A DNA stretch of 64,000 nt from Somniosus microcephalus (Eukaryota), in NCBI GenBank assembly GCA_052327205.1, contig CM126205.1:119350001-119414000 (forward strand), in the 5' to 3' direction. A program made the translations under genes and the position numbers. The notes below the pieces were generated by a model, which was not told the origin of the DNA, made no database searches, and was given only the letters and a program-made list of their open reading frames with translations. This document shows positions 30-60,350 of the stretch, one piece after another (position 1 is the stretch's first letter; each line of letters begins with the position of its first letter).

Positions 30-1225
30 GCACTAGACACTGTCTATGATTATATTACACTACACAGGGTCTCTGTTTATATTACACGAGGCAGGGCCTC
101 TGTTTATATTACACTAGGCATGGTCTCTGATATAGTACACTGGACTCTGTCTCAGTTTATATTACACGAGACAGTGTATCTCTTAAAATTACACTAGACA
201 ATGTATCTGTTTATATTTCACTAGTCCCTTTCTCAGTTTTAACTACACTAGTGCCTCTCTCTTTTTATATTACACTCGACCCTGTCTGTTTATATTGCAC
301 TAGTCCCTGTCTCTGTTTATTTTGCTCTAGACCCTGTCTCTGTTTATATTACACTGGACGCTATCTCTGTTTATAATGCACTAGACCCTGTCTTTGTTTA
401 TATTACACTAGACCCTATTTCAGTTTATACTACACTAGAGCCTGTCTCTGTTTATATTACACTAGACCCTGTCTCTGTTTCTATTACACTAGGCTCTTTC
501 TCCATTTATATTACACTAGACCCTCTCTGTTAATATTACACTAGACACTGTTTCTGTTTATATTACACTAAACCCTGTCTCTGTTTATATTACACTAGGC
601 CCTGTCTCTGTTTATATTTCACTAGACCCTGTCTCTGTTTATATTACACTCGTCCCTGTCTCTGTTTATTTTGCACTAGACCCTGTCTCTGCTTATATTA
701 AACTGGACGCTGTCTCTGTTTATATTACACTAGACACTGTCTCTGTTTATATTACAATAAAGCCTGTCTCTGTTTATATTACACTAGACCCTGTCTCAGT
801 TTATATTAAACTAGAGCCTGTCTCTGTTTATATTACAGTAGACCCTGTCTCTGTTTATATTACACTAGGCCCTTTCTCAGCTTATATTATCCTAGGCCCT
901 CTCTGTTTATATTACACTAGACCCTGTCTCTGTTTATATTATACTCGACTCTGTCTCTGTTTCTATTACACTAGAACCTGTCTCAGTTTATATTACACTA
1001 GACCCTGTCTCTGTTTATATTACACTAGACCCTGTCTCTGTTTATATTACACTAGACACTTTCTATATAAATATTACACTAGACAGGGTCTCTGTTTATA
1101 TCACTCATGACAGGGTCTATGTTTATAATACACTAGACATGGTCTCTGGTTATAGTACACTGGACCCTGCCTCTTGTTGTATTACACGAGACCCTGCATC
1201 TGTTTACATTACATTAGATAATGTC
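30..1225. repeat. 27-bp minisatellite (TATATTACACTAGACCCTGTCTCTGTT)n, about 44 copies
   Basis: Tandem unit read directly; the edges are more diverged than the core. Confidence 0.95.
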
Positions 1226-1599: not shown

Positions 1600-4500
1600 G
1601 CCAATGTCCTCTCCCCCCACAAACTCCGTTCCCTGCTTACCGAATGCATCTCTCTCCCTGGCTTCTGTCTGAGGATTAAATTAGAATGTTGAAAACCTTG
1701 GCCTTCTATTTGACCCTGAGATGAGTTACCGATCACTTATCTGGTCCTTCACCAAGATCGCCTATTTCCACCTCTGGAACATCACCCATCTCCGCCGCTG
1801 TCTCAGCTCATCTGCTGCTGAAACCCTCATACTGGCCTTTGCTGCCTCAAGACTTGACTATCTATTGGTCTTCTGATCCGGCCTCATAACTTGCATTTTT
1901 AAGAGCTTGAACTCATCCAAAACGCGAGAGTTCACATCCTAACTCACACCAAGACCCATTCACCCACCATCCTAACTCACACTATCCACCATTCACCCAT
2001 CATCCTAACTCACACTAACCCCCATTCACCCATCATCTTAACTCACACTAACACCCATTCACCCATCATCCTAACTCACACTAACCCCCATTCACCCGTT
2101 ATCCTAACACTAAACCCATTCACCCATCATTCTAGCTCACACCAAGACACCTTCACCCATCATCCGAACGCACACCAGGAGCCATTCACCCATCATGCTA
2201 ACTCACACCAAGACCGATTCACACATCATCCTAATTCACACAAAGCCCCAACCACGTAGCATGAAAACTCTCATAAAGCCCCATTCACCCGTCATCCAAA
2301 CTCACACCAAGACCAATTCACCCATCATCCTAACTCACACTAAGCCCCATTCACCCATCATCCTTACTCAAACAAAACCCAACTCACCCATCATCCTAAC
2401 TCACACCAGGCCCCAGTCGCCCATCATCCTAACTCACACCAGGCCCCAGTCGCCCATCATCCTAACTCACACCCAGACCCATTCACCCATCATCCTACCT
2501 CACTCCATAAGACCCATTCACCCATCAACCTAACTCACACCAGGCCCCAGTCGCCCATCATCCTAACTTACACCCAGACCCATTCACCCATCATCCTAAC
2601 TTACACACAAGACCCATTCACCCATCATCATAACTCACACCAAGACCCATTCACCCATCATCCTAACTCAGACCAAGCCCCATTCACTCATCAACCTAAC
2701 ACGCACTAAGCCACATTCACCAATCATCCTAACTCACACCAAGACCCATTCAACCATCATCCTAACACACACCAAGCCCCAGTCGCCCATCATACTAACT
2801 CACACCAAGTCCCATTCACACATCATCCTAACTCACACCAAGGCCCATTCAACGATCATCCTTACTCACACCAAAACCCATTCACCCATCATCCTAACTC
2901 ACACCAAGGCCCAGTCACCCATCATCGTTACTCACACCCAGACCAATTCACCCATTATCCTAACTCACACCAAGACCCGTTCAGCCATCATGCTAACTCA
3001 TACCAAACCACATGGACTCATCATCCGAACTCACACAAAAACCCAATTCACCCATCGCCCGAACTCACACCCAGACGCATTCACCCATCATCCTAACTCA
3101 CACCCAGACCCATTCACCCATCATCCTAACTTGCACTAAGCCCCATTCACTCATCATCCTAACTCACACCAAGCCCCATTCACCCATCATCCTAACTCAC
3201 ACCAAGACCCAATTCACTCATCATTCTAACTCACACCAGGACCCATTCACCCAGCATCCTGACCCACACCAAACCCCATTCACCCATCATACTAACACAC
3301 ACCAAACCACATTTACCCATAATCCTGACTCACACCAAGACCCATTCATCCATCATCTTAACTCACACCAAGCTCCATTCTCCCATCATCCTAACTCACA
3401 CCACGCCCATTCACCCATCATCCTAACTCACACCAAACCCCATTCACCCAACATCCTAACTCACACCAAGCCCCATTCACCCAATATCCTAACTCACACC
3501 AAGACCCAATTCACCCATCGTCCGAACTCACACCCAGATGCATTCACCCATCATCGTTACTCACACCCAGACCCATTCACCCATCATCCTAACTCACACC
3601 AAGACCCGTTCACCCATCATGCTAACTCACACCAAACCACATTGACCCGTCATCCGAACTCACACCAAGACCCAATTCACCCATCGTCCAAACTCACACC
3701 CAGATGCATTCACCCATTATCCTAACTCACACCCAGACCCATTCACCCATCATCCTAACTTGCACTAAGCCCCATTCACCCAGCATCCTAACTCACACCA
3801 AACCCCATTCACCCATCATCCTAACACACACCAAACCACATTTACCCATAATCCTGACTCACACCAAAACCCATTCATCCTTCATGCTAACACACACCAA
3901 GCTCCATTCTTCCATCATCCTAACTCACGCCAAGCCCATTCACCCATCATCCTAACTCACACCAAGCCCCATTCACACAACATCCTAACACACACCAATC
4001 CCCATTCACCCAACATCCTAACTCACACCAAGACCCATTCACCCATCATCCTAACTCACACCAAGACCGATTCACTCACCATCCTTATTCACACCAAGAC
4101 CCAATTCACCCATCATCCTAACTCACACAAGGCCCCATTCACCCAACATACTAAATCACACCATGCCCCATTCACCCAACATCCTAACTCACTCCAAGAC
4201 CCATTCACCCATCATCCTAACTCACACCAAGACCCATTCACCCATCATCCTAACTCACACCAAGACCCAATTCACCCATCACCCTAACTCACAAAAAGCG
4301 CCATTCACCCATCATCCTAAATCACACTAAGCCGATTCACCCATCATCCTAACTCACACCAAGCCCATTCACCCATCATCCTAACTCACACCAAACCACA
4401 TTCACCCATCATCCTATCTCGCTCAAATCCCCATGCACCCATCATCCTAACTCACACCAAGCCCCATTCACCCATCATCCTGTGCTTGCTGATGTACATT

Positions 4501-8146: not shown

Positions 8147-8834
8147 CATAAGAACATAAGACGTAGCAGCAGGAGTTGGTCATTTGGCCCCTCGAGCCTG
8201 CTCTGCCATTCAATAAGATCATGGTTGATCTGATCTTGGCTTCAACTTCACTTCCCTGCCCGTTCCCCATAACCCTTAACTCCCTTATCATTCAAAAATC
8301 TGCCTATCTCCACCTTAAATATATTCAGTGACCCAGCTTCCATAGCTCTCTGGGGAAGAGAATGTCAAAGATTCACGACCCTCAGAGATGAAATTCCTCC
8401 TGATTTCCGTTTTAAATGGGTGCCCCCCTCATTCTGAAATTATGAACCTAGTACTGGATTCCCCCACGAGGGGAAACATCCTCTCTCTGCATCTACCCTG
8501 TCAAGCCCCATCAGAAACTTATATGTTTCAATAAGATCCCCTCTCATTCTTCTAAACTCCAATGAGTATAGGTTCAACCTGCTCAACCTTTCTTCATGTT
8601 AGGCTAACTGTTCTATCGTTGCCTGCTTTCTTTCTCCCTCCTTTCTTAAATAGGGGCGTTACATTTTCGGTTTTCCAGTCTGCTGGGACCTCTCCAGAAT
8701 CCAGGGAATTTTGTTAAATTACAAACAATGCATCCACTATCCCTGCAGCCACCTCCTTTAAGAACCTAGGATGCAGGCCATCGAGTCCAGTGGACTTGTC
8801 AGACTTTATTCCCATTAGTTTACCTAGTACTTTC
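8147..8834 (-). mobile_element. CR1 LINE fragment (3' end joined to RT N-terminal part); target of the LTR insertion, resumes about 13279-13304
   Basis: (CATAAGAA)n tail at the left end. The minus strand encodes EERLSRLNLYSLEFRRMRGDL and GLHPRFLKEVAAGIVDAL. Confidence 0.9.
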
Positions 8835-9069
8835 TGTGGTAAACCACTGTTTGTTATTGTTGTTGTTGTTGTTGCACACTGTTGTGCCTATGCATGCCTC
8901 CGCTGACTCCGCCCCTGGCTCCACCCACATTCCCGGGTATAAAGGTGACTGCTCTGCAGCCCCCTGCCCTTTTGGATACCAGGCAACCACGAGAGGCATG
9001 CTCTGTTCTTTGCTAATAAAAGCCTATTAATTAACTCTCTGTCTTTTATGAGGAATTGATAGTGTATCA
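8835..9069 (+). repeat. 5' LTR (235 bp) with TATAAA (8938) and AATAAA (9015)
   Basis: Differs from the 3' LTR by 4 substitutions and a 6-bp microsatellite indel. Confidence 0.97.
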
Positions 9070-9088
9070 ATTTTATTAGCAAAGCAAA

Positions 9089-12000
9089 ATGTCGGGTCCA
9101 AATGTTGAACAGCAGGAGCTGCATCAACCGACAGCGCCAAACACTGAGCAGCAGGCACTGCTGTGAGCCCTCAGACCAACATGCCTGGACCTAGACCCCC
9201 AAGAAGCGGGTTAGGCTACCAAATTCGCACAATGTCTGCGTTGCTTTGAGGCATACCTGGAAGCCTCAACTGTGACCCTAGATGAAAACAAGCTGAAAAT
9301 CCTGGCCTCAAAGGTGAGCCACCAAGCCTATACTCTAATCAAGGACGCGACGACCTACGCGGCGGCTATCGATCTGCTAAAAGGGCAATACGCACACCCG
9401 GTAAATACGGTCTATGCCAGGCACCTTTTAAGATCCCGCAGACAGCAGCCCAGGGAATCGGTGGAGGCTTTCCTACGGGCACTGCGGATACTCGGCCGAG
9501 GCTGCGATTGCAAAGAAGTATCAGCCGCAGCACACACGGAGGGACCGATCCGAGATGCTTTCGTTGCGGGTCTAAGGTCCGACTACTCCCGGCAGAGACT
9601 GTTGGAGAAGGGAGAAATAGACCTGAAAAAGGCAGTGTCCCTCGCGCTCTCGCTCGACGTGGCCCATAGGAATATGGACGCTTTCTCCCCTAACCGCTCC
9701 GCACCGTGGACGCCGCAAGCTTGGGTCATGGGACCGCCACCTCCAGCTGCTGCAGCGATGTCCAAGGCACAGAAATGTTATTTTTGTGGCCAGGCAAAAC
9801 ACACCAGAGCACGCAGCCCGGAGAAAAACGCCTCCTGCTCCGGCTGCGGGAAGAAAGGACACTATGTCAGCGCCTGCAAAGGCAAAACTGCTAACGCCAG
9901 CAGCGCCACGTGTGAACCGTCGGGGCAGCCATCTTGTCCACCATCTTGGGCTCCCCCAGCTGCGTGGGGATCGGGATCATGGGGGCCGCCATTTTGTCCA
10001 CCATCTTGGACGCCTCCAACTTCAATCACGGGGGACCCGGACTCAACCACCGCCTCATCTGACGCCCACATCGACTCGCTTGGCCATACACTGGCCTCCG
10101 TGACACTGGACCAATCTCTCCATCATCAACTGTCCAGGTCCATGATGGACATTACGGCAAACGGCCGTGCCACTACCTGCCTTTCTGACAGCGGGAGCAC
10201 GGAGAGTTTTATGCACCCCGACACGGTGCGCAGTTACTCTCTCCAGGTCCTGCCGACGCACCATTGGATCTCTATGGCTTCCAAAGCCCAGTCAGCAGAC
10301 GTCGGTGGCTACTGTGTGGTGACCCTTTCGGTACGGGGCACAGAATACAAAAATTTTAAACTTCTGGTCCTGCCCCATCTCTGCGCTGCCGTTCTACTGG
10401 GGTTGGATTTTCAGTGCCACCTTAAAAGTGTCACATTGGCATATGGCGGACCCCTCCCCCCACTCACAGTCTGCAGCCAGCAGCTTTTAAATCACCCGCC
10501 GCGCACCACCTGCAGCCTCTCTACCCTTAAAGTCCCCCCCCTCCTTTTTTGCTAACCTCACCCGCGACTGTAAGCCCACCGCTACTAAAAGCAGGCGTTA
10601 CAGTGCCGGGGATAGGAGTTTCATTAAATCTGAGTTAGCGAGACTCCTGAAGGAAGGGATTATTGAGAGTAGCACCAGCCCATGGCGAGCACAAGTGGTG
10701 GTGGTGAAGACTGGTGGAAAACAATGCCTAGTTATCGACTACAGCCAGACGATCAATCGCTACACCCAGTTGGATGCATACCCACTCCCCCGCATATCTG
10801 ACATGGTCAATCAGATAGCACAATACCGGGTGTTCTCGACGATTGATCTGAAGTCGGCACACCACCAGCTACCCATCAGGGCTGAGGACCGCCAGTACAC
10901 AGCTTTTGAAGCTGACGGTCGTCTCTACCACTTCCTCAGAGTTCCCTTCGGCGTCACCAACGGGGTTTCAGTCTTCCAACGGGAGATGGACTGGATGGTT
11001 GACCAGAACGCGCTCCAGGCCACTTTCCCCTATCTAGACAACGTCACCATCTGCGGCCACGACCAGCAGGACCATGATGTTAACCTAGAGAAATTCCTCC
11101 GTATGGCCCAGCGGCTGAACCTAACATACAACAAGGACAAATGTATGTTTCGTACCACGACAGAATGCGCCCCCTTATGGAGCTCCCCCTCCCCCGCTGC
11201 CAAAAAGCACTGAAGTGATGCCTAGGGTTTTTCTCGTGCTATGCTCAGTGGGTGCCCAACTATGTGGACAAAGCCAGACCCCTCATCAAGTCCGCCTCCT
11301 TCCCCCTGACAGCAGAGGCATGTGCAGCCTTCACTCTCATAAAAAGAAACATTGCAAAGGCCACAATGCACGCAGTGGATGAGTCCATCCCTTTCCAAGT
11401 GGAGAGCAACGCATCCGACTTTGCCCTAGCTGCAACCTTTAACCAGGCGGGGAGACCCGTGGCCTTTTTCTCAAGGACCCTCCAGGGCCCCGAGATTCGA
11501 CACTCTTCTGTCCAAAAGGAGGCTCAGGCCATTGTGGAAGCTGTGCGACATTGGAGGCATTACCTGGCCGGAAAACTATTTACCCTGCTCACTGACCAGC
11601 GTTCAGTAGCTTTTATGTTTAATAATAAGCAGAGGGGCAAAATCAAGAATGACAAGATCTTGAGGTGGAGAATCGAACTCTCCACCTACAATTACGATAT
11701 CTTGTACCGGCCCGGGAAACTCAATGAGCCCCCAGATGCCCTATCACGTGGTACATGCGCCAATGCGCAGGTTGATAGACTGAAGACCCTCCACAATGAC
11801 CTCTGCCACCCGGGGGTCACCAGGTTCTTCCATTTCATCAAATCCCATAACCTGCCCTACTCCATCGAGGAGGTCAGGACCTTGACCAGGAACTGCCAAA
11901 TCTGTGCCGAGTGCAAACCGCATTTTTATAGGCCAGACAGAGCGAGCCTGATCAAAGCCACGTGCCCCTTTGAGCGGCTGAGCGGCGATTTCAAAGGGCC

Positions 12001-12973
12001 CCTCCCCTCCTCTGACCGCAATGTGTACTTCCTCAATATAATTGACGAGTACACCCGTTTCCCATTTGCCATCCCTTGCTCAGACATGACCAGTACCACG
12101 GTCATTAAATGTCTGAATGACCTCTTCGCCTTGTTCGGTTTCCCTAGCTATATTCATAGCGACAGGGGCTCATCCTTTATGAGCGACGAACTTCGTCAGT
12201 ACCTGCTCGCGAGAGGTATTGCTACAAGCAGGACCACGAGCTACAACCCCCGGGGGAATGGCCAGGTGGAAAGAGAGAATGCGATGGTCTGGAAGGCAGT
12301 CCTTTTAAACTTGAAATCTAAGGGCCTTCCGACCTCTCGCTGGCAGGAGGTCCTCCCTGCGGCGCTCCATTCCATTCGGTCACTGTTTTGTACAGCCACC
12401 AATGCCACCCCTCATGAGAGAATGTTCTCCTTCCCCAGGAAGTCCACATCGGGGATCTCGTTACTGACATGGCTGACTTCTCCAGGACCCGTCCTACTGC
12501 GGAAGCACGTGAGGTCCCATAAGACGGACCCCCTGGTCGAGAGGGTGAGCCTCCTCCATGCCAACCCTCAGTATGCTTACGTGGTGTACCCGGACGGGCG
12601 GGAGGACACAGTCTCCACACGAGACCTCGCACCTTCGAGTGCTCCCGAAACACTTCCTTCGCCACCCACCACTACCCACGCCTACCCCCAGTATGCTTAC
12701 GTAGCGTACCCGGACCGGCGGGAGGATACTGTCTCCACACGAGACCTCGCACCTTCGGGTGCCCCTGAGACACCACCATCGCCACCCACCACTACCCACA
12801 CCCCGACCCCTGTAGACGGCATGCTGCAGCCCCAGGACCCGCCATTGACTACGCAACCTCTCATCAACGAGACGCCAGGTTCGGCGTTGGATGCTGCATC
12901 ATCACCGCCACTGCTACGACGATCTGGACGGCATACAAGGCCACCTGATAGACTTAACTACACGAACTTTTAG
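9089..12973 (+). pseudogene. Gypsy gag-pol polyprotein, disrupted
   Basis: Two Zn knuckles (CYFCGQAKH..., CSGCGKKGHYVSAC), protease DSGS, RT (YPLPRI, PFGVTNG, YLDN), RNase H (RPVAFFSRTL, LLTDQR), integrase (HNDLCHPG..CQIC, HSDRGSSF, GNGQVEREN). Lesions: two early stops in gag, a frameshift near 10545, and a deletion/frameshift near 11160. Confidence 0.93.
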
Positions 12974-13032
12974 TTTACACGAACTTTTAGTACACTTCAC
13001 CCCACCGGACTCAATTTTAAACAAGGGGTGAA

Positions 13033-13273
13033 TGTGGTAAACCACTGTTTGTTATTGTTGTTGTTTTTGTTGTTGTTGCACACTGTTGTGCCTATGCATG
13101 CCTCAGCTGACCCCGCCCCTGGCTCCACCCACATGCCCGGGTATAACGGTGACTGCTCTGCAGCCCCCTGCCCTTTTGGATACCAGGCAACCACGAGAGG
13201 CATGCTCTGTTCTTTGCTAATAAAAGCCTATTAATTAACTCTCTGTCTTTTATGAGGAATTGATAGTGTATCA
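13033..13273 (+). repeat. 3' LTR (241 bp)
   Basis: Direct repeat of 8835-9069. Confidence 0.97.
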
Positions 13274-13301
13274 CTTTCTCTCTAGTCAAAGTAATTGTAT
13301 T

Positions 13302-14357
13302 AAGTGGGTCATTTTCCAGTTGGCAAACGGTAACTAGTGGGGTGCCACAGAGATCAGTACTGGGGCCTCAACTATTTACAATCTACATTAATGACTTGGA
13401 TGAAGGGACCGAGGCTAATGTAGCCAAGTTTGCAGATGATACAAAGATCAGTGTGAAAACAAGTTGTGCAGAGGGCTCAAATAATCTGCAAAGGAATATA
13501 GACAGGCTAAGTGAGTGGGAAAACATTTGGCAGATGGAGTATAATGTGGGAAAGTGCGTGGTTATTCACTTTGGCAGGAAATATAAAAAAGCAAACTATT
13601 ATTTAAAGGGAGCTGGATTACAAAATGCTACAGTTCAGAGGGACATGGGGGTCCTTGTGCAGGAATCACAAAAAGTTAACATGCAGGTACAGCAAGTAAT
13701 CAAAAAGGCAAATGGAATGTTGGCCTTTATTTCAAGGGGGTTGGAGTATAAAAGCAGGGAAGTCCTGCTACAACTGTACAAGGTATTGGTGAGACCACAC
13801 CTTGAGTACTGTGTACAGTTTTGGTCTCCTTATTTAAGGAAGGATATACTTGCATTGGAGGCAGTTCAGGGGCGATTCACTCGGTTAATTCCAGCGATGA
13901 GGGGGTTGACTTATGAAGAAAGGTTGAGCAAGCTGAGCCTATGCTCATTGGAATTTAGAAGGATGAGAGGTGATCTTATTGAAACATATAAAATACTGAG
14001 GGGGCACGACAGGGTAGATGCAGAGAGGATGTTTCCCTCGTGGGGAAATCTAGAACTCGGGGCATAGTCTCAGAATAAAGGGCCACCCTTTTGGAACTGA
14101 GATGACGAGGAATTTCTTCTCTCAGAGGGTCGTAAATCTGCGGAATTCTCTGCCCCAGAGAGCTGTGGAGGCTGGTTTATTAAATACATCTAAGGTGGTG
14201 ATAGACAGGTTTTTGCAAGATAAGGGAGTGAAGGGTTAAGGGGAGCGGGCTGGGAAGTGGCTTTGAGCTCAAGATCAGCCATGATCTTATTGAATGGCGG
14301 AGCAGGCTCGAGGGGCCAAGTGGCCTATTCCTGCTCTTATTTCTTTTGTTCTTATGT
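13302..14357 (+). mobile_element. 5'-truncated CR1 LINE (RT C-terminal half and 3' UTR)
   Basis: ORF 13342-14067 contains VLGPQLFTIYINDL..KFADDTK..LVRPHLEYCVQFWSP; tail TTCTTATG. Confidence 0.95.
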
Positions 14358-14845
14358 TTTTAAGTTCCACCCAACCCCAATAGCCCCTTGATTATCAATT
14401 ATTAGCTTTTAGTTTCTTCTCCCGTGTTTCACCTTATTCTGCAATGCTTCTGCCGAATGGACTGGTATTGTATCTTCAAGCTACTTTAAGCTGTTTGGGA
14501 CGCTGAGCTTGTAAATTTTCCAATTTATCTGAGGTTAATAAAATACAAGCTCCAAGCACAATGTCTAAATTGGCCATTTATTGGACAAACTTCTTTTGTT
14601 TCATCTTGATGAAAGTCCACCCATTCTTCATTAGTGTTGTGAATTTAGCTCCTGGGTGAAGGAGGATTTGTAGCACAAATCTCCCCACAGAACGTGATCT
14701 AAATCAGCGAGTGAAGGTCTCATTCCATTGGCTCCTTCCCGCACTCTCGGTATTGGGGGCAGATGTAGGTGTACTTTACAAACTCGTTGTAAAATAGAAA
14801 TACGTTCAATTACACTGAGCATAAACCCTCCCAGGAATGTTTGCA

Positions 14846-15538
14846 CACCATCAGCTGGTTTGAACACACCGTCAGCTGGTTTGATCACACTGTCAACTAG
14901 TTTGAACACACCATCAGCTGGTTTGAACACACCGTCAGCTGGTTTGAACTCACCGTCAGCTAGTTTGAACTCACCATCAGATGGTTTGAACACACCATCA
15001 GCTGGTTTGAACTCACCATCAGCTGGTTTGAACACACCATCAGCTGGTTTGAACACACCGTCAGCTGGTTTGAACTCACCATCAGCTGGTTTGAACTCAC
15101 CGTCAGCTGGTTTGATCACACTGTCAGCTGGTTTGAACTCACCGTCAACTAGTTTGAACACACCATCAGCTGGTTTGAACACACCGTCAGCTGGTTTGAA
15201 CAAACCCTCAGCTGGTTTGAACTCACCATCAGCTAGTTTGAACACACCATCAGCTGGTTTGAACACAGCATCAGCTGGTTTAAACACACCGTCAGCTGGT
15301 TTGAACTCACCGTCAGCTGGTTTGAATATAGCGTCAGCTGGTTTGAACACACCGTCAGCTGGTTTGAACACAGCGTCAGCTGGTTTGAACACACCGTCAG
15401 CTGGTTTGAACACACCGTCAGCTGGTTTGAACACACCATCAGCTGGATTGAACACACCGTCAGCTGGTTTGAACACACCATCAGCTGGTTTGAACTCACC
15501 ATCAGCTGGTTTGAACATACCGTCAGCTGGATTGAACT
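14846..15538. repeat. 21-bp minisatellite (ACACCRTCAGCTGGTTTGAAC)n, about 33 copies
   Basis: Highly homogeneous tandem array; most units carry CAGCTG. Confidence 0.97.
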
Positions 15539-15619
15539 AACTCCAGAATTCAATCAAATTCCTGTGAACTGAATGAAATAAAAGATTTTGAGTGTCCCTG
15601 GACAAACCATGCCTACTAC

Positions 15620-16070
15620 CTCTTCTCCCGTTTCCTCCACTTCTCTCCTCTTCCAATCTCATCCCCACTCCTCTAACCCCTCCCTAATCCTCCTCCTCTT
15701 CCTCCTCCTCCTTTCCTCCCTTCTGCTTCGCTGCTCTTCCACTCTCCACTTCCCATTTCTCCTCGTCCCTTATCCTTGTTGTCCCACTCTCCTCATTTCC
15801 CTTAAGCACCACGCCGTCACCCATCCCCCTCCCTAATCTCCACCTTTTCTCTGTTTCTCTGCCACTTCTTCTCACCTATCCTCCCCTTACCTCAGCCATA
15901 TCCATACTGCTCTTCCCTTTCCTCGTTCATTATTCTCCCCCTCTCTCTCCAATCTGATATTACACACTGCTCCTCCTTCTCTCTCCTCTGCCTCTTTCCC
16001 TGCCTCCTCTCCCCTCCTCTCCTCCCATTCCGCTCCTCTTCGACTCACCTCACCCTTTGATCTCTCAATC
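15620..16070. repeat. Pyrimidine-rich (CT) low-complexity tract
   Basis: Nearly pure C/T on the + strand. Confidence 0.8.
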
Positions 16071-17859: not shown

Positions 17860-19040
17860 AACAAATTCGGGACAAGTCTCACCCGGCCAATTACCGCTCT
17901 ATCAGTTTTCTATTAATCCTCAGTAAAGTGATTGACGAGTTTTAATTATTGCTGTGAAGTCGCATCTACTCACTAATACCCGGCTCACCGATACTCAGTT
18001 TGGATCCTGCCAGATGCACCCGGATGCAAACTTCTCACAGCCTTGATACAGACATCGTTTCAATGGGGGTCCAAGGGGGGAATTCTCCAATGGTTGAGGT
18101 CATACCTGCTACAAGTAATGTGGTTGTTCTTGTCGTAACTCAGGGACGTGTCCTCAGAGTAACCAACTCCAGCTGCCTCATCAATGACATTCCGCCATCA
18201 TAAGGTCAGGATTAGTTCCATTCACTGATGATTCTGCCGTTTGCAACGCCATTTACAACTCCTCCAATAGCAACGTCTGCACAACACCCAGATTGGGCTG
18301 ATACGTGGCAGGTAATAAGCCAGTTTCATAAGTACCAGGTGTATTGATCAAAACAAAGAACACCCACCTGCCCGTGAACTTCACAGAGTCCCCAATGACC
18401 AACACTTGGTGATCACTATTGACTGGAAGCTGAACTGCACCAGCCATATCAATACTGTGACTGCAAGAGCAGGGCAGAGGCTGGGCAGAGGCTGGGCAGG
18501 GGCTGGGCAGAGACTGGGCAGAGACTGGGCAGAGTCTGGGCAGAGGCTGGGCAGAGGTTGGGCAGAGACTGGGCAGAGGCAGGGCAGAGGTTGGGCAGAG
18601 GTGGGGCAGAGACTAGGCAGAGGCTGGGTAGAGACTGGGCAGAGGCTGGTCAGAGGGCGGGCAGAGACTGGGCAGAGGCTGGGCATCCTTTGAGAGTGAC
18701 TTACTGCTTGATCCCGAAAGCCTACCAAACACCTGGAAGTCTCAGGTCAGAAATGTGATGTAATACAGACCACTCACCTGGATGGGCATCAACAACATCC
18801 AACAAGCGCAACACCATCCAGGACAGAACAGTTTTTGATCAGTGTCTGTGTACCACTAGATTCATTATCCACCCCCTCCAGCACTGCGGCTGCAGTAAGC
18901 TCGGTCTACAGAATGCACTGCATTAACTCACCAAAGTTACTTCGGCAGCACCTGCTTCCCCTGTGATCTTTACACCAGGAGGAGAAGAGAAGAAATTTCG
19001 TGAGAACCATCACTTCCAGCACACCATCCTGGCTTGGACA
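17860..19040 (+). mobile_element. Old CR1/L2-group LINE RT fragment with an internal 11-bp expansion
   Basis: NYRSISFLLILSKV and ITIDWKLNCTSHINTVTARAGQRLG[repeat]IL..SQVRNVM; same family as 50780-56000. Confidence 0.8.
18472..18685. repeat. 11-bp repeat (GGGCAGAGGCT)n, about 19 copies, expanded from the LINE codons GQRLG
   Basis: LINE coding sequence is colinear on both sides of the array. Confidence 0.9.
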
Positions 19041-19910: not shown

Positions 19911-20179
19911 CAGACCCTTCATCGGTTCTCAGTCAGAATCCAGGAATTCTCCAACTAACACCACGTGAGAGCACCGTCAGCAGAAGAACTACTTCAGCTC
20001 ATAGAGAAGACCCACCACCAGCATTTCAGGTAGCCAAGGATCGACAATAACTGAAGCCTTGCCGGTCTCAACTACATTCCAAGAACCAACTTTAAAAATT
20101 AATTCAATGGGGGTGGAATTATTAGCTGCAGTTGCGAATTGCATGAGATTCTGACCAGGGAGGAGAACTAAGTCTATTG

Positions 20180-20760
20180 CCAGGGAGGGGAATGGTGTCT
20201 GTGTCCAGGGAGGGGAATGGATTCTGTGTCCAGGGAGTGGAATGGAGTCTCTGTCCAGGGAGGAGAATGGAGTCTGTGTCCAGGGTGGGGAATGGAGTCT
20301 CTGTCTAGAAAGGGGAATGGAGTCTGTGTCCAGGGAGGGGAATTAAGTCTGTGTCCAGGGAGGGGAATGGAGTCAATGTCATGGGAGGGGAATGGAGTCT
20401 GTGGCGAGGATGGGGAATGGAGTCTGTGTCCAGGGTGGGGAATGGAGTCTGTGGCGAGGATGGGGAATGGAGTCTGTGTCCAGGGTGGGGAATGGAGTCT
20501 GTGGCGAGGGAGGGGAATGGAGTCTGTGTCCAGGGACGGGAATGGAGTCTGTGTCCAGGGAGGGGAATGGAGTCTGTGGTGAGGGTGGGGAATGGAGTCT
20601 GTGTCCAGGGAGGGGAATGGAATCTGCAGCGAGGGTGGGGAATGGAGTCTGTGTCCAGGGAGGGGAATGGACTCTGTGTACAGGGAGGGGAATGGAGTCT
20701 GTGGCGAGGGAGGAGAATGCAGTCTGTGTCCAGGGAGGGGAATGGAATCTGTGGCAAAGG
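20180..20760. repeat. 25-bp G-rich minisatellite (GGAGTCTGTGTCCAGGGAGGGGAAT)n, about 23 copies
   Basis: Read directly. Confidence 0.95.
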
Positions 20761-21829
20761 CATGGATGTAACGGCAAGGGCCGAAGATGATGACTTCAAT
20801 TGTTTTCTGAAATTGTAATCAATAATTGAATTATTTGTTGGAAACAGAACCTTCACAACCAACGTATTTAATACATAACTTGTAAGTGGCTTAAAGGAAG
20901 ACTTTCCGAGCACATCACAAATAACCTGTAAAGAAGGGACTGTCACTTTAAATAGACTGATAATATGACCCACATTGTAAGATGTCACGGTGGAATTTCA
21001 GAAAGTGTCTGAACACAGCTGGAGCCGTGTTACCCTGCTGCCTTTCACCTGCTGTGAGAACTGAACAGATCACAAATTGTTAGAGGGAATATGAGACAAG
21101 GAAATATTGCAAGATTTCACGATTCAATCCTCCATCTTCAATCGGCAGAAATAATTTCCACCTACAGGAGATGTTGGATAGTCCATGCGGACCTCACCGA
21201 GATCTCCTGAACTGTGGCTGAACAATGGAAATAAAGCAGTTCAAACATAACTGAATAAACATTTTACTGGAACATGTATTACAGTTAAATCCTGTCCCGG
21301 CCATCTGGAATCAGTGACCGTAAGGCAGAGCGGGAGATGGTGGAAAGTAAGACAGCTGCCTGGAGCTGCATCATTAGTGGGTATTGTCGCATATTTCAGT
21401 GAATTTGTGATCTAGCTGTCAGCGCTGGTTTCCACAGATCAGTGTCATTAACTACATCAAGCAGATGTTAAAACTCCTGTTACCCCGAACAGATATTTCT
21501 GGTCCAATAATAGGGTTCAGTGCAGAGCGCAGATTGCAAGTTGTTCAATAAAGAGAATCGCCCACTAACATTTGGTAAACAATTCAAATAACAGTCACAT
21601 TCTGTGAAAGACTATCAGTGGAAGCAAGTTGTGAAAAGTAGAAACTTCAGTGAACTGGGAGCATTGAATCGGTAACTGATCAAACATTACATGATAGAAA
21701 TACGATGCATTACCAGACACAGAAGAAGAGCGTTAAACTTAATACAATTAATAATCGGGTCTAAAGGACGAGGACAGTAAATACAGCGAAACATGGTTTA
21801 CAGAATTAATTGCTGAAATAATGACTCAC

Positions 21830-21926: not shown

Positions 21927-22399
21927 GATCTCATTGATTGTGAGATCCAATGGTCGCAGTTTGTATTGGAGACCACACTCAGTCAAACACTGATGGACAC
22001 AATGAAAACTGTCCCTATTTATAGCCTCAGGGAAATCTCCAGTGCGATCATTAAACTACACACTAACTGACATTAATTATAGTCACTTAACAAACACAAC
22101 GACATAATCCTTTCACACCATCACCTTCTATTGCACAACATATTAAAAGCAACGTGGTATTCTTACCAAGTGACTTCATCCACAACCAAAAAATTTATTT
22201 TTAACTCTGTTGTTAAAAACAGAAATAGGGCATCCTGCAATCTCAAATTATGAATGTGAAGTGAGCAGCTTCACTTACACAGTTCCGATTATTACTGCGA
22301 CATGCTGTAACCATGTAATTTCAGACTTTCAATTCATTTCAATGGGTGAACTTAACATAAGTGCAAAAGAAAAAATGGATGCAGAGAGGCAGATCAAGT

Positions 22400-25247
22400 A
22401 ACGGTCAGTAAGGACTTATGGGGACTGATAATACAATGGTTAGAAAGGATACATGGAGACTGATACTACAATGGTCAGTAAGAATTCATGGGGGCTGATG
22501 ATAAAATGGTCTGTAAGGATACATGGGGACTGATAATACAATGGTCAGTAAGGATACATGGGGACTGATAATACAATGGCCAGTAAGGATACATGAGACT
22601 GATAATACAATGGTCAGAAAGGATACATGGAGACTGATAATACAATCGTGAGAAAGGATACATGGGGACTGATAATACAATGGTCAGAAAGGATACATGG
22701 AGATTGATAATACAAAGGTCAGTAAGGATACATGGGGACTGATAATAAAATGGTCTGTAAGGATACACGCGGACTGATAATACAATGTTTAGTAAGGATA
22801 CATGGGGACTGATAATACAATGGCCAGTAAGGATACATGGGGACTGATCATAAAATGGTCAGTAAGGATGCATGGGGACTGATAATACAATAGTCAGTAA
22901 GTATTAAAGGGGACTGATAATACAATGGTCAGATAGGATACATGGGGACTGATAATGCAATGGTCAGTAAGGATACATGGGGACTGATAATACAATAGTC
23001 AGTAAGGATACATGGGTACAGCTAATAAAATGGTCAGTAAGGATACATGGGGACTGATAACACAATGGTCAGTATGGATACATGGGGCTGATAATACAAT
23101 GGTCAGTAAGAATTCATGGGGGCTGATAATCAAATGGTCAGTAAGGATATAAGGGGACTGATAATACAATGGTCAGTAAGGATAAATGGGGACTGATAAG
23201 ATAATGGTCAGTAAGGATACATGGGGACTGATAATACAATGGTCAAAAAGGATAAATGGGGACTGATAAGATAATGGTCAGTAAGGATACATGGGCACTA
23301 ATAATACAATGGTCAGAAAGGATACACGGAGACTGATAATACAATGGTCAGTAAGGATACATGGGGACTGATAATAAGCTGGTCTGTAAGGATACATGCG
23401 GACTGATAATACAATTGTCAGTATGGATACATGGAGACTGATAATACAATAGTCAGTAAGGATACATGAGGCCAGGTAATACAATGGCGAGTAACGATAT
23501 ATGGTGATTGATAATACAATGGTCAGAAAGGATTCAAGGGGACTAATAACATAATGGTCAGTAAGGAGACATATGTACTGATAAGACAATGGTCAGTAAA
23601 AATGCATGGGGACTGATAATTCAGTGGTCAGTAAGGATACATGGGGAATGATAATACAATGGTCAGTAAGGAGACATGGGGCCAGATAATACAATGGTCA
23701 GTAAGGAGACATGGGGCTAGATAATACAATGTTCAGTAAAGAGACATGGGTCCAGATAATACAATAGTAATGAGGATACATGGTGACTGATAATACACTG
23801 GTTAGTAAGGATAGATGAGGACTGATAATACGATGGTCGGTAAGAATGCATGGGGACTGATAATACATTAGTCAGCAAGGCTACATAGGCTTGATAATGT
23901 AATGGTCAGTAAGGATGCAAGGGGGACTGAAAATGCAGTGGTGAATAAGGATACATGGGGGTTGATAATGAATTGTCAGATAAGGTGCAGGGGAACTGGT
24001 AATTCTGTGGACAATAAGCATCCATAGGTGCTGATACAGTAGTCAGTAAGGATATATTGTGCGGATACAAATATTGATCAGTAAGTGTACATGGGGACTA
24101 ATAAATGAATGGACAATAAGGAAACACGAGGAATGATAATGCAATGGTGAGAAAGTGTAAATGGGGGCTGCTAATGTGATGGACAGCAAGGATACATGCG
24201 GACTGATAATACAATGGTCAGTAAGAATACATGGGGCTGATAATACAATGGTCAGAATGTACAAAAAGGCATTTAATGCAATGGTCATTTAGGATATATT
24301 AGTACGGAAAATGCAATAGTCAGTAAGTATATATGTGGACTGACAATTGAATGCACAGTAAATAACACGTGGAGAGATAATGCAATGGTCCGTAAAGATT
24401 AATGGGAGCTGATAATACAATGGGCAGTAAAGATTAATGGGGACTGATAATGCAATGGTCAGCAAGGATACATGCGGACTGGAAATGCAATGCTCAGTAA
24501 GGATTCATGGGGACTGATAATGCAATGGTCAGTAATGATAACTGGGGTATATAATGCAATGGTCAGTAAGGACACATGGGGACTGATATTCCAATGGTCA
24601 GTAAGGATACATGGGGACTGATAATAGAAAGATCAATAAGGTTACATACGGACTGATAATACAATGGTCAGTAAGGATACATGGGGACTGATAATACAAA
24701 GGTCAGTAAGGATATATGGGTACTGATAATACAAAGGTCAGTAAGGATATATGGGTACTGATAATACAATGGTCAGTATGGATACATGGGGACTGATAAT
24801 GCAATGGTCAGTAAGGATACATGGGGGTGATAATACAATGGTAAGTAAGGATACATGGGGACTGATAATACAATAGTCAGTAAGGATACATGGGGACTGA
24901 TAATACAATGGTCAATAAGGACACATGGGGACTGATAATACAATAGTCAGTAAGGATACATGGGGACTGATAATACAATGGTCAATAAGGACACATGGGG
25001 AATGATAATACAATGGTCAGTAAGAATATATGGGGACTGATAATACAATGGTCAATAAGAATACATGGGGACTGATAATACAATGGTCAGTAAGGATACA
25101 TGGTGGCTGATTATACAATGGTCAATAAGAATACATGGGGACTGACAATACAATGGTCAGTAAGGATACATGTGGACTGATAATGCAATGCTCAGTAAAG
25201 TTACATGGGGAATGATAGTGCAATGGTTAGTAGGAATACATGGGGAC
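22400..25247. repeat. 35-bp minisatellite (CATGGGGACTGATAATACAATGGTCAGTAAGGATA)n, about 80 copies
   Basis: Read directly; internal ACTGA..TCAGT inverted repeat in each unit. Confidence 0.97.
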
Positions 25248-59416: not shown

Positions 59417-59599
59417 CCTAGCCTGCTTTAAATTTGGTGAAGCTATATTTTTCCACCGCTTGGAATGGATTGATGTAAACAGGAAACATTTCCCTTTTTG
59501 GTGGCGTACAAAAATCACCATTTATATTAATGTAAAGAAAAGTTTCAAACAATGGAATGAGTAGTGTGGTTTTTGTGCAATGGAGCAGGAGAACATAAA

Positions 59600-60350
59600 G
59601 CCCAATTTACTTACAGGTGATCTTCCTGTGCCAGAGACAAAAACATCCCAATTTACTGACAGGTGACCTTACTGCAGCAGAAAAACACACATCCCAATTT
59701 ACTGGCAGGTGATCTTCTTGTACCAGGGAGACAAACATCCCAATTTACTGACAGGTGACCTTTCTGTACCAGAGACACAAACATCCAAATTTACAGATAG
59801 GTGACCTTCCTGTACCAGGGACACAATCATCCCAATTTACAGATAGGTGACCTTCCTGTACCAGAGACACAAACATCCCAATTTACTGATAGGTGACCTT
59901 CCTGTACCAGAGACACAAACACCCCAATTTACTGACAGGTGACATTCCTGTACCAGAAACACAAACAGCCCAATTGATTGACAGGTGACATTCCTGTACC
60001 AGAAACACAAAGATCCCAATCTATTGACAGGTGACCTTCCTGTACCAGAGACACAAACATCCCAATTTACAGAGAGGTGACCTTCCTGCACCAGGGAGAA
60101 AAACATCCCAATTTACTGACAGGTGACCTTCCTATACCAGAGGCACAAACATCCCAATTTACTGACAGGTGACCTTCCTGTACCAGAGACACAAACATCC
60201 CAATTTACTGAGAGTTGGACTTCCAGTACCAGAGACACAACATCCCAATTTTCTGGCAGGTGTCCTTCCTGTACCAGAGAAACAAACATCCCAATCTACT
60301 GACAGGTATCCTAAGCTAGCAGTGACACAAACATTCTAATTTGCTGTCAA
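59600..60350. repeat. 46-bp minisatellite (ACAGGTGACCTTCCTGTACCAGAGACACAAACATCCCAATTTACTG)n, about 16 copies
   Basis: Read directly; ACAGG..CCTGT hairpin in most units. Confidence 0.95.

Follow-up and report, generated by a model that had tools for sequence, protein, structure and literature searches.

The Ty3/Gypsy element identified in the window (the whole analysed stretch of DNA, 64,000 nucleotides long) represents a clade of elements in which the primer-binding position is complementary to a segment of the element's own LTR. This self-complementary primer site is real, extends across the clade and covaries, and the clade itself is very large and diverse in the host genome. The initial annotation of the window had proposed self-priming for this element, and the proposal is strongly supported by inference from the conservation of the complement, its two-sided covariation, the pairing type (free of G-U pairs), the fixed one-nucleotide spacer and the lack of a tRNA that fits across families. 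Judging from sequence comparisons, elements of this clade very probably prime reverse transcription with their own RNA in some form, and they probably do so in cis, from a primer that lies inside R and is released by a cut of the RNA after AAUAAAA.

The element is 4.44 kb long and encodes domains of protease (PR), reverse transcriptase (RT), RNase H (RH) and integrase (IN) in gypsy order. Its LTRs bounded by TG...CA, target-site duplication, polypurine tract and the gag-PR-RT-RH-IN arrangement of domains are those of the Ty3/Gypsy elements, and the nearest solved structure to its RT is that of Ty3. The LTR segment that is complementary to the primer-binding position is referred to below as the partner. 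The features, all on the forward (+) strand, are as follows:

8830-8834 (+): 5' target-site duplication CTTTC (5 bp), repeated at 13274-13278
8835-9069 (+): 5' LTR, 235 bp, TG...CA
8938-8943 (+): TATA box (TATAAA), 70 nt upstream of the partner; putative RNA start near 8966
9008-9021 (+): partner (putative self-primer), ending on AATAAA (9015-9020) plus one A; putative cut after 9021
9022-9065 (+): inner stem-loop, starting at the first base 3' of the partner; core 9024-9032 / 9054-9062
9070 (+): one-base spacer (A) between the LTR and the primer site; likewise 1 nt in 24 of the 24 relatives with two located LTRs
9071-9084 (+): primer-binding position, exact complement of 9008-9021
9089-10555 (+): gag and aspartyl protease; ATG 5 nt past the site, zinc knuckles at 9776-9877, two stops in gag
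10491-11213 (+): reverse transcriptase, in a different frame in the window copy; catalytic YLDN aligns with YLDD of Ty3
11219-12973 (+): RNase H and integrase, without a match to SH3_Tf2-1 or chromodomain
13019-13032 (+): polypurine tract, directly 5' of the 3' LTR
13033-13273 (+): 3' LTR, 241 bp; differs from the 5' LTR by 4 substitutions and a 6-bp microsatellite indel
13274-13278 (+): 3' target-site duplication

With its two gag stops and the RT shifted to another frame, the window copy is broken. Its first zinc knuckle is devoid of the final Cys (relatives carry two knuckles), and the 3' LTR has TATAAC at the position of TATAAA of the 5' LTR. The named proteins closest to those of the element come from rays and catsharks, pointing to a cartilaginous fish as the likely host. 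A LINE-like RT frame (13267-14067) starts at the 3' edge of the element, and minisatellite arrays (units of 27, 33, 21, 11, 25, 35 and 46 nt) as well as dispersed LINE-like repeats occur throughout the window (32-1200, 1870-4300, 14718-15630, 18425-18730, 20045-20870, 22288-24500 and 59501-60350). Among the 40 best copies of the window family, 15 are located within one 14-Mb stretch (host C4:105-119 Mb) and five within half a megabase (host C1:22.5-23.0 Mb), a local clustering.

The description of the site given in the initial annotation held in all its parts. The sequence at 9071-9084 is the exact reverse complement of 9008-9021 (14 of 14 pairs), with the helix extending on neither side; the 5' LTR is followed by an A (9070) and by no TGG; the inner stem, of 9 bp including one G-U, lengthens the hairpin; the part of the LTR that forms the hairpin, including the partner, is identical in the 5' and 3' copies; and the distance of the partner from the TATA box is about 70 nt, as claimed. 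The 3' LTR also contains the partner, and, since no complement is present downstream of it, the outer stem cannot be formed there. The longest LTR complement among 5000 dinucleotide shuffles was 12 nt, none of the 5000 reaching 13, and the fold of the whole hairpin (-36.1 kcal/mol, z -2.4) was equalled by 2 of 200 shuffles. When the 30 best family copies were taken, the window copy among them, 28 of the 29 that could be parsed were found to keep all 14 pairs. A chance origin of the complement is ruled out by the shuffles together with the host junctions and cross-family controls described below.

An alignment of 30 pol proteins used as a query retrieved 80 metagenome loci and 11 loci from metagenome-assembled genomes (MAGs). 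Both LTRs could be located in 24 of these 91 outside loci, which represent about 12 families with pol 41-66% identical. In none of the 24 is the LTR followed by TGG, and the 3' end of a tRNA was accordingly rejected as the primer. The site of these two-LTR relatives pairs at 12 of 12 positions with their own 5' LTR in 17 cases and with the better of the two LTRs in 20, and at no fewer than 11 of 12 positions in all 24, whereas the cross-family control pairings reached 12/12 in 1 and 11/12 in 9 of 132 combinations. The complementarity is therefore kept in relatives, with the partner lying 21-56 nt upstream of the site. In three of them (L072, L075, L121) the 5' LTR has drifted and the 3' LTR retains the full match to the site. 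Ten further junctions, obtained from single-LTR contigs, were selected for at least nine pairs and thus measure diversity rather than frequency; the set of 25 junctions referred to below includes these 10, chosen by demanding complementarity. In 57 of the 91 loci, which are short, truncated or decayed, the junction could not be fixed, and a relaxed scan of 26 of those 57 yielded a few candidates with 10-11 of 12 pairs. No relative was found in the viral_contigs collection, and a GTDB scan with RT alone returned no informative match. Named relatives belong to cnidarians, molluscs, echinoderms, crustaceans, a nematode, a rotifer and elasmobranchs.

Several individual loci deserve mention. Contigs placed in bacterial MAGs (L111-L121) bear these animal retrotransposons, likely as a host contamination. 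The LTRs and site of L076 are in opposite orientation to its matched pol segment, which may reflect an internal inversion or a misassembly. In L063 and in the candidates L041, L045 and L105, the partner end is not a poly(A)-type hexamer, and they may constitute a sub-branch whose priming is no longer tied to the signal.

In the host genome (6.45 Gb), a junction pattern with a fixed hexamer, a fixed LTR end and seven prescribed pairs gave 20,877 matches, and its reversed counterpart, run as a control, gave 0. Among 50 junctions examined from the host (the first 30 listed and 20 hand-picked for diversity), 49 have six or more exact pairs in addition to the 7 forced ones. When distinct hexamer pairs were compared, 15 of 16 matched at 6/6 positions versus 2 of 240 crossed pairs, a result reached in 0 of 20000 permutations. 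The compensatory changes that the initial annotation proposed to look for in related families were found: in 10 aligned families, 6 of 13 pairs have changed in both of their members, and one-sided changes are absent (0 of 500 shuffles). A second host family, fetched by protein (40 loci, L128-L167, of which 33 were parsed), comprises two subtypes with a both-sided difference at one pair (18 and 8 fully read copies), plus one mosaic and one copy with a mismatch. Both-sided variants at one pair, albeit unphased, were also seen in RNA reads of a related organism (L234, positions 271 and 345). Two loci (L048 and L165) have a variant of the partner in both LTRs that is unmirrored in the site, as in uncorrected intermediates. 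Six members of the second host family (L137, L142, L149, L153, L154 and L161) lie within duplicated or tandem flanks, which may point to a preference for repeats.

The outer helix is composed of Watson-Crick pairs. Of its 300 positions in the 25 junctions, 294 are Watson-Crick and 6 are mismatches, with no G-U pair; likewise, there is none at the 180 free positions of the 30 host types, a set from which de-duplication removed L208, which has one mismatch. The predicted inner stems have G-U at 38 of 234 and 78 of 431 positions. By position 15, 5 of 30 remain paired, which places the edge of the helix at 13-14 bp. Since a stem acting solely as RNA would tolerate wobble, the absence of G-U suggests that the primer is copied to the plus strand and pairs again as DNA. 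The one-nucleotide spacer would put the 3' end of the primer where the start of the minus strand must define the LTR edge.

The bases that follow the partner are also conserved, with positions +2 and +3 occupied by C in 21 of the 25 junctions and position +4 by T in 20. The first four bases 3' of the partner have a mean predicted paired probability of 0.74 versus 0.30 in shuffles, and of 0.86 versus 0.37 in a second analysis. What is retained is thus a stem that opens right after the partner, the sequence with which it pairs being family-specific; the exact inner stem of the window element was rejected as a trait of the clade, as the consensus fold of 10 families returned the outer helix only. 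The junction between the partner and this stem is likely the site of the cut.

Taken together, these features may be accommodated in the following course of events. The RNA would start about 28 nt past the TATA box, placing the partner about 40 nt inside R. The partner and the site would pair in cis, and the second stem, which begins at the next base, would stack on the helix. Element RNase H, acting as it does in Tf1, would cut the junction after 9021, and the 3' end so released would serve as the primer of reverse transcription in place of a tRNA. The RT would then copy the spacer, U5 and a short part of R as far as the cut. The R piece extending from the cut to the poly(A) site would carry the first strand transfer. 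The primer would remain on the minus strand and be copied into the plus strand, so that the site would be rewritten from the partner. At the second transfer, such a rewritten site would have to form its pairs as DNA, and this would account for the Watson-Crick-only helix and its sharp 13-14-bp edge. To judge by the title of a 2006 paper by Atwood-Moore, the primer of Tf1 is reportedly not removed. Against this course of events, an internal primer leaves an unpaired leader of 40 nt, which is without precedent in Tf1. Speculatively, RNase H could remove this 5' leader after the minus strand has been extended across the 3' R. A search for a conserved leader fold able to stop plus-strand copying gave no signal (mean z -0.24 vs. 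-0.10 in the U3 control).

The primer could also be supplied by R at the 3' end of the RNA, of the same or of a co-packaged molecule, if the partner located there paired with the site, was cut after AAUAAAA and lost the poly(A) tail. The identity of the partner in both LTRs would permit this, covariation is blind to which of its copies pairs, and end-to-end pairing would suit a primer ending on a poly(A) signal. However, the 5' copy is 49 nt away from the site and folds first, and the conserved stem past the partner relies on U5, which is likely missing at the RNA 3' end. Additionally, such a primer would presumably be open to RNase H after the strand transfer. We consider priming from the 3' R unlikely and favour priming in cis from inside the 5' R.

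Whether the partner is internal to R depends on where the RNA starts. In the geometry of Tf1, the RNA would start at the partner, which would constitute the first 13-14 nt of the message. The sharp end of the complement at 13-14 bp, behind a triplet that hardly varies, is what a fixed 5' end could produce, and there would be no leader problem. The position of the TATA box argues against it: among the 50 host junctions, 29 have a TATAWA motif 64-80 nt upstream of the partner and 0 have a TATA-like motif at 15-40 nt, whereas in Sushi-type elements of the same genome the TATA-like box precedes the partner by 30-31 nt in four of four LTRs, with a loop of 149-162 nt, as expected of the Tf1 geometry. 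The latter come from 20 other gypsy loci, fetched by Pfam family as same-genome controls. Five of the controls are of the one-knuckle (Sushi) type and have a self-complement of 9-11 nt far upstream; the one that was scanned (L169) has SH3_Tf2-1 and a weak chromodomain match. The six two-knuckle controls with an LTR pair all have a TGG site and a self-complement of 5-6 nt. Three Sushi-type copies are arranged head to tail with a spacing of 4644 nt (host C6:113013102-113022572). The spacing of about 70 nt, as opposed to 30-31 nt in the Sushi-type controls, indicates that the partner is likely inside R, and an RNA start at the partner seems improbable. The other 21 of the 50 junctions from the host, together with almost every invertebrate junction, have no TATA at the 64-80 nt spacing, and so the start may differ there. 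Two RNA runs of a related organism contained sense-biased gag reads (under the usual strand convention) and no usable pile-up at a start or poly(A) site.

The end of the partner coincides with AATAAA in 11 and with ATTAAA in 6 of the 25 junctions, and with another word in the remaining 8; in 4 of the 25, AATAAA or ATTAAA is located within the loop. This raises the question of whether the helix serves solely to hide the poly(A) signal of the 5' LTR, with another primer being used. With the RNA start assumed at 8966, the 5' hexamer is predicted to be unpaired with a probability of 0.54-0.78 when 25 nt past it have been transcribed and of about 0 once the site has been transcribed, the HIV-1 hairpin acts in this manner, and the signal ends the partner in 17 of the 25 junctions. 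Nevertheless, the helix is kept in the 8 junctions without a signal at this place, four junctions have a signal in the loop, an RNA-only stem would be expected to hold G-U pairs, as the inner stems do, and there is no alternative primer site at the LTR edge of the two-LTR relatives. We regard masking as the sole role of the helix as quite improbable. With the signal lacking from the partner end in 8 of 25 junctions, masking appears to be optional and priming the common denominator. Hiding of the 5' poly(A) signal, as modelled by folding, is quite possibly a side function in those elements whose primer ends on the signal, rather than the core function, although we stop short of calling it probable. 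The initial annotation had inferred a switch hiding AATAAA in the 5' LTR only. This is predicted for the window family, but it is not general, and equilibrium folds do not show a clearly accessible signal at the 3' copy: the hexamer at the 3' end is predicted to be unpaired in 56-78% at the same point and in 11-57% when the fold runs into the flank. Because the 3' signal is partly paired in such flank folds, the contrast between the 5' and 3' copies is not clean.

Half of a tRNA-Ile(AAU) has been proposed as the primer of Bianca copia elements (half-tRNA-Ile priming is described in the available part of PMC6317226), and if it acted here, the self-complement would be a by-product. A comparison of the site with host tRNAs, tRNA-Ile being the one compared, revealed a match of 9 of 14 nt in the window family, the host tRNA-Ile(AAT) genes having these 9 nt of the partner within their anticodon arm, and the 5' half of tRNA-Ile would pair over them with -11.8 kcal/mol, versus -14.3 kcal/mol for the self helix; yet 23 of the 24 other junctions match at 4-7 nt and one at 9 nt, none of the 14 genome matches that extend the match is a tRNA, and each of the 15 host hexamer variants tracks its own LTR, so that there is no fit across families and a half-tRNA primer is disfavoured as very improbable. 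A tandem array of tRNA-Ile(AAT)-like genes (some 70 copies listed, with a period near 2.05 kb) is present at host C38:2.97-3.11 Mb.

The RT of the clade is 27-33% identical to those of the same-genome control groups, namely 27-31% to the Mag-type group, whose label rests on markers and not on named reference sequences, and about 30% to the Sushi-type group. In quick RT trees, the window element and 30 or 16 relatives form one branch with a long stem (SH-aLRT 95). The unrooted tree separates the clade and Sushi from the Mag-type group and one other row with a support of 92. The clade is not nested in chromoviruses in the quick tree, which is compatible with a sister relation; nor is it nested in the Mag-type controls (a set without named references), and a sister grouping of the clade and Mag is not rejected (p-AU 0.08). 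SH3_Tf2-1 and the chromodomain are absent from the window element and from three of three full-length clade proteins. The sequence comparisons thus assign the clade neither to Sushi nor to the tRNA-primed Mag elements. The initial annotation had described the gag as having two zinc knuckles and being Mag-like; the two knuckles were found in relatives (the first is degenerate in the window copy), but the RT of the clade is separate from those of the two-knuckle elements that, in the same genome, are primed by tRNA. Self-priming may have evolved here independently, as the initial annotation suggested, the unrooted RT tree being compatible both with a kinship to Sushi or Mag and with its absence.

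The catalytic motif of the clade RT is mostly YxDN: among 225 relatives (P0001-P0225), the motif matches have N in 143 and D in 28 cases. We read YxDN, which departs from the YxDD norm of Ty3/Gypsy, as a variant of the clade. In Ty1, the same change of aspartate is reported to block transposition. YxDN is also present in 39 of the 40 copies of the second host family, which is young and has long open frames, and the self-complement occurs with both YxDN and YxDD. As families with LTRs 98-99.6% identical carry YLDN, a natural YxDN RT has likely been working recently. The fuller picture, in which a second, separately evolved form of self-priming operates in a large animal Gypsy clade, with one helix silencing the 5' poly(A) signal and then being cut there, an internal-R primer trimmed to 13-14 nt, the site rewritten in each cycle and an enzyme mostly of the YxDN type, is tentative, and as a whole we hold it to be doubtful.

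Among described elements, Cigr-1 has a size near 4.2 kb. It is listed with two knuckles (PMC2774666, the portion of supplement 3 available to us) and reported from tunicates, molluscs and annelids (available text of PMC6238403 and PMC8556966). Cigr-1 or a MolGy/PolGy clade, set beside our clade by description only, may be a lead to its published name.

To our knowledge, self-priming has been demonstrated for Tf1 alone and predicted in the chromoviruses related to it and in a few lines of copia. In the portions available to us of PMC6934838, PMC3601003, PMC6238403, PMC8556966, PMC2774666, PMC4600332, PMC6317226, PMC8220671, PMC7175516 and PMC7472051, it is named for Tf1/Sushi/Tcn1 and the copia TAR lineage only. 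Our literature search, which left subscription journals and Repbase reports outside its scope, found no account of self-priming, the primer site or YxDN for the present clade, and an earlier mention is possible.

Tf1/Tf2 of S. pombe, Tj1, Sushi and Tcn1 resemble the clade in having no tRNA site and an LTR-adjacent site complementary to their own LTR (PMC7175516, PMC4600332 and PMC6317226, in the parts accessible). In Tf1, the RNA's first 11 bases pair and RNase H cuts between bases 11 and 12 (accessible part of PMC7175516); the cut in the clade is proposed by analogy. While the Tf1 primer, according to the same partial source, consists of the 11 nt with which the RNA begins, the partner in the clade is 11-19 nt long, lies about 70 nt past the TATA box and puts the primer end on a poly(A) hexamer. 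In the Sushi-type elements of the same genome, a self-complement of 11 nt is located 30 nt past the TATA box and the loop of 149-162 nt has AGTAAA inside, compared to a loop of 21-68 nt in the clade. Unlike the Tf1/Sushi chromoviruses, the clade has two knuckles, is without a chromodomain or SH3_Tf2-1, and its RT is about 30% identical to theirs. The U5 of Tf1 is said to form a stem that adjoins the helix, a likeness to the clade.

Mag elements use a tRNA-type primer site. The Mag lineage (A/B/C clades: Mag, CFG1, Hydra2-1, SURL) is similar to our clade in its two CCHC knuckles, short LTRs and wide metazoan range (accessible portion of PMC2774666, supplement 3). The Mag-type elements of the same genome differ from it by the TGG site, an RT 27-31% identical and a separate branch in the tree. 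With respect to the poly(A) signal, in HIV-1, a tRNA-primed virus, AAUAAA is enclosed by a stem located at the RNA 5' end. This hairpin is local, is present at both RNA ends and tolerates wobble, whereas in the clade the masking arm is found only behind the 5' LTR. The TAR copia lineage (Houba, Osr-1) and fungal GalEa with its hairpin site are akin to the clade in that tRNA-free priming was predicted from sequence (PMC6317226 and PMC6934838, as far as their available text goes); they differ in belonging to the Copia superfamily, and no link to a poly(A) signal is reported in that text.

If our reading is true, the clade would escape control by 3' tRNA fragments and is overlooked by tRNA-based annotation, and one short RNA could serve to probe the way in which an LTR evades its own 5' poly(A) signal and whether priming is linked to the choice of the 3' end. 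Thus, in addition to Tf1 and its kin, a separate and abundant animal clade appears to self-prime with a layout other than that of Tf1.
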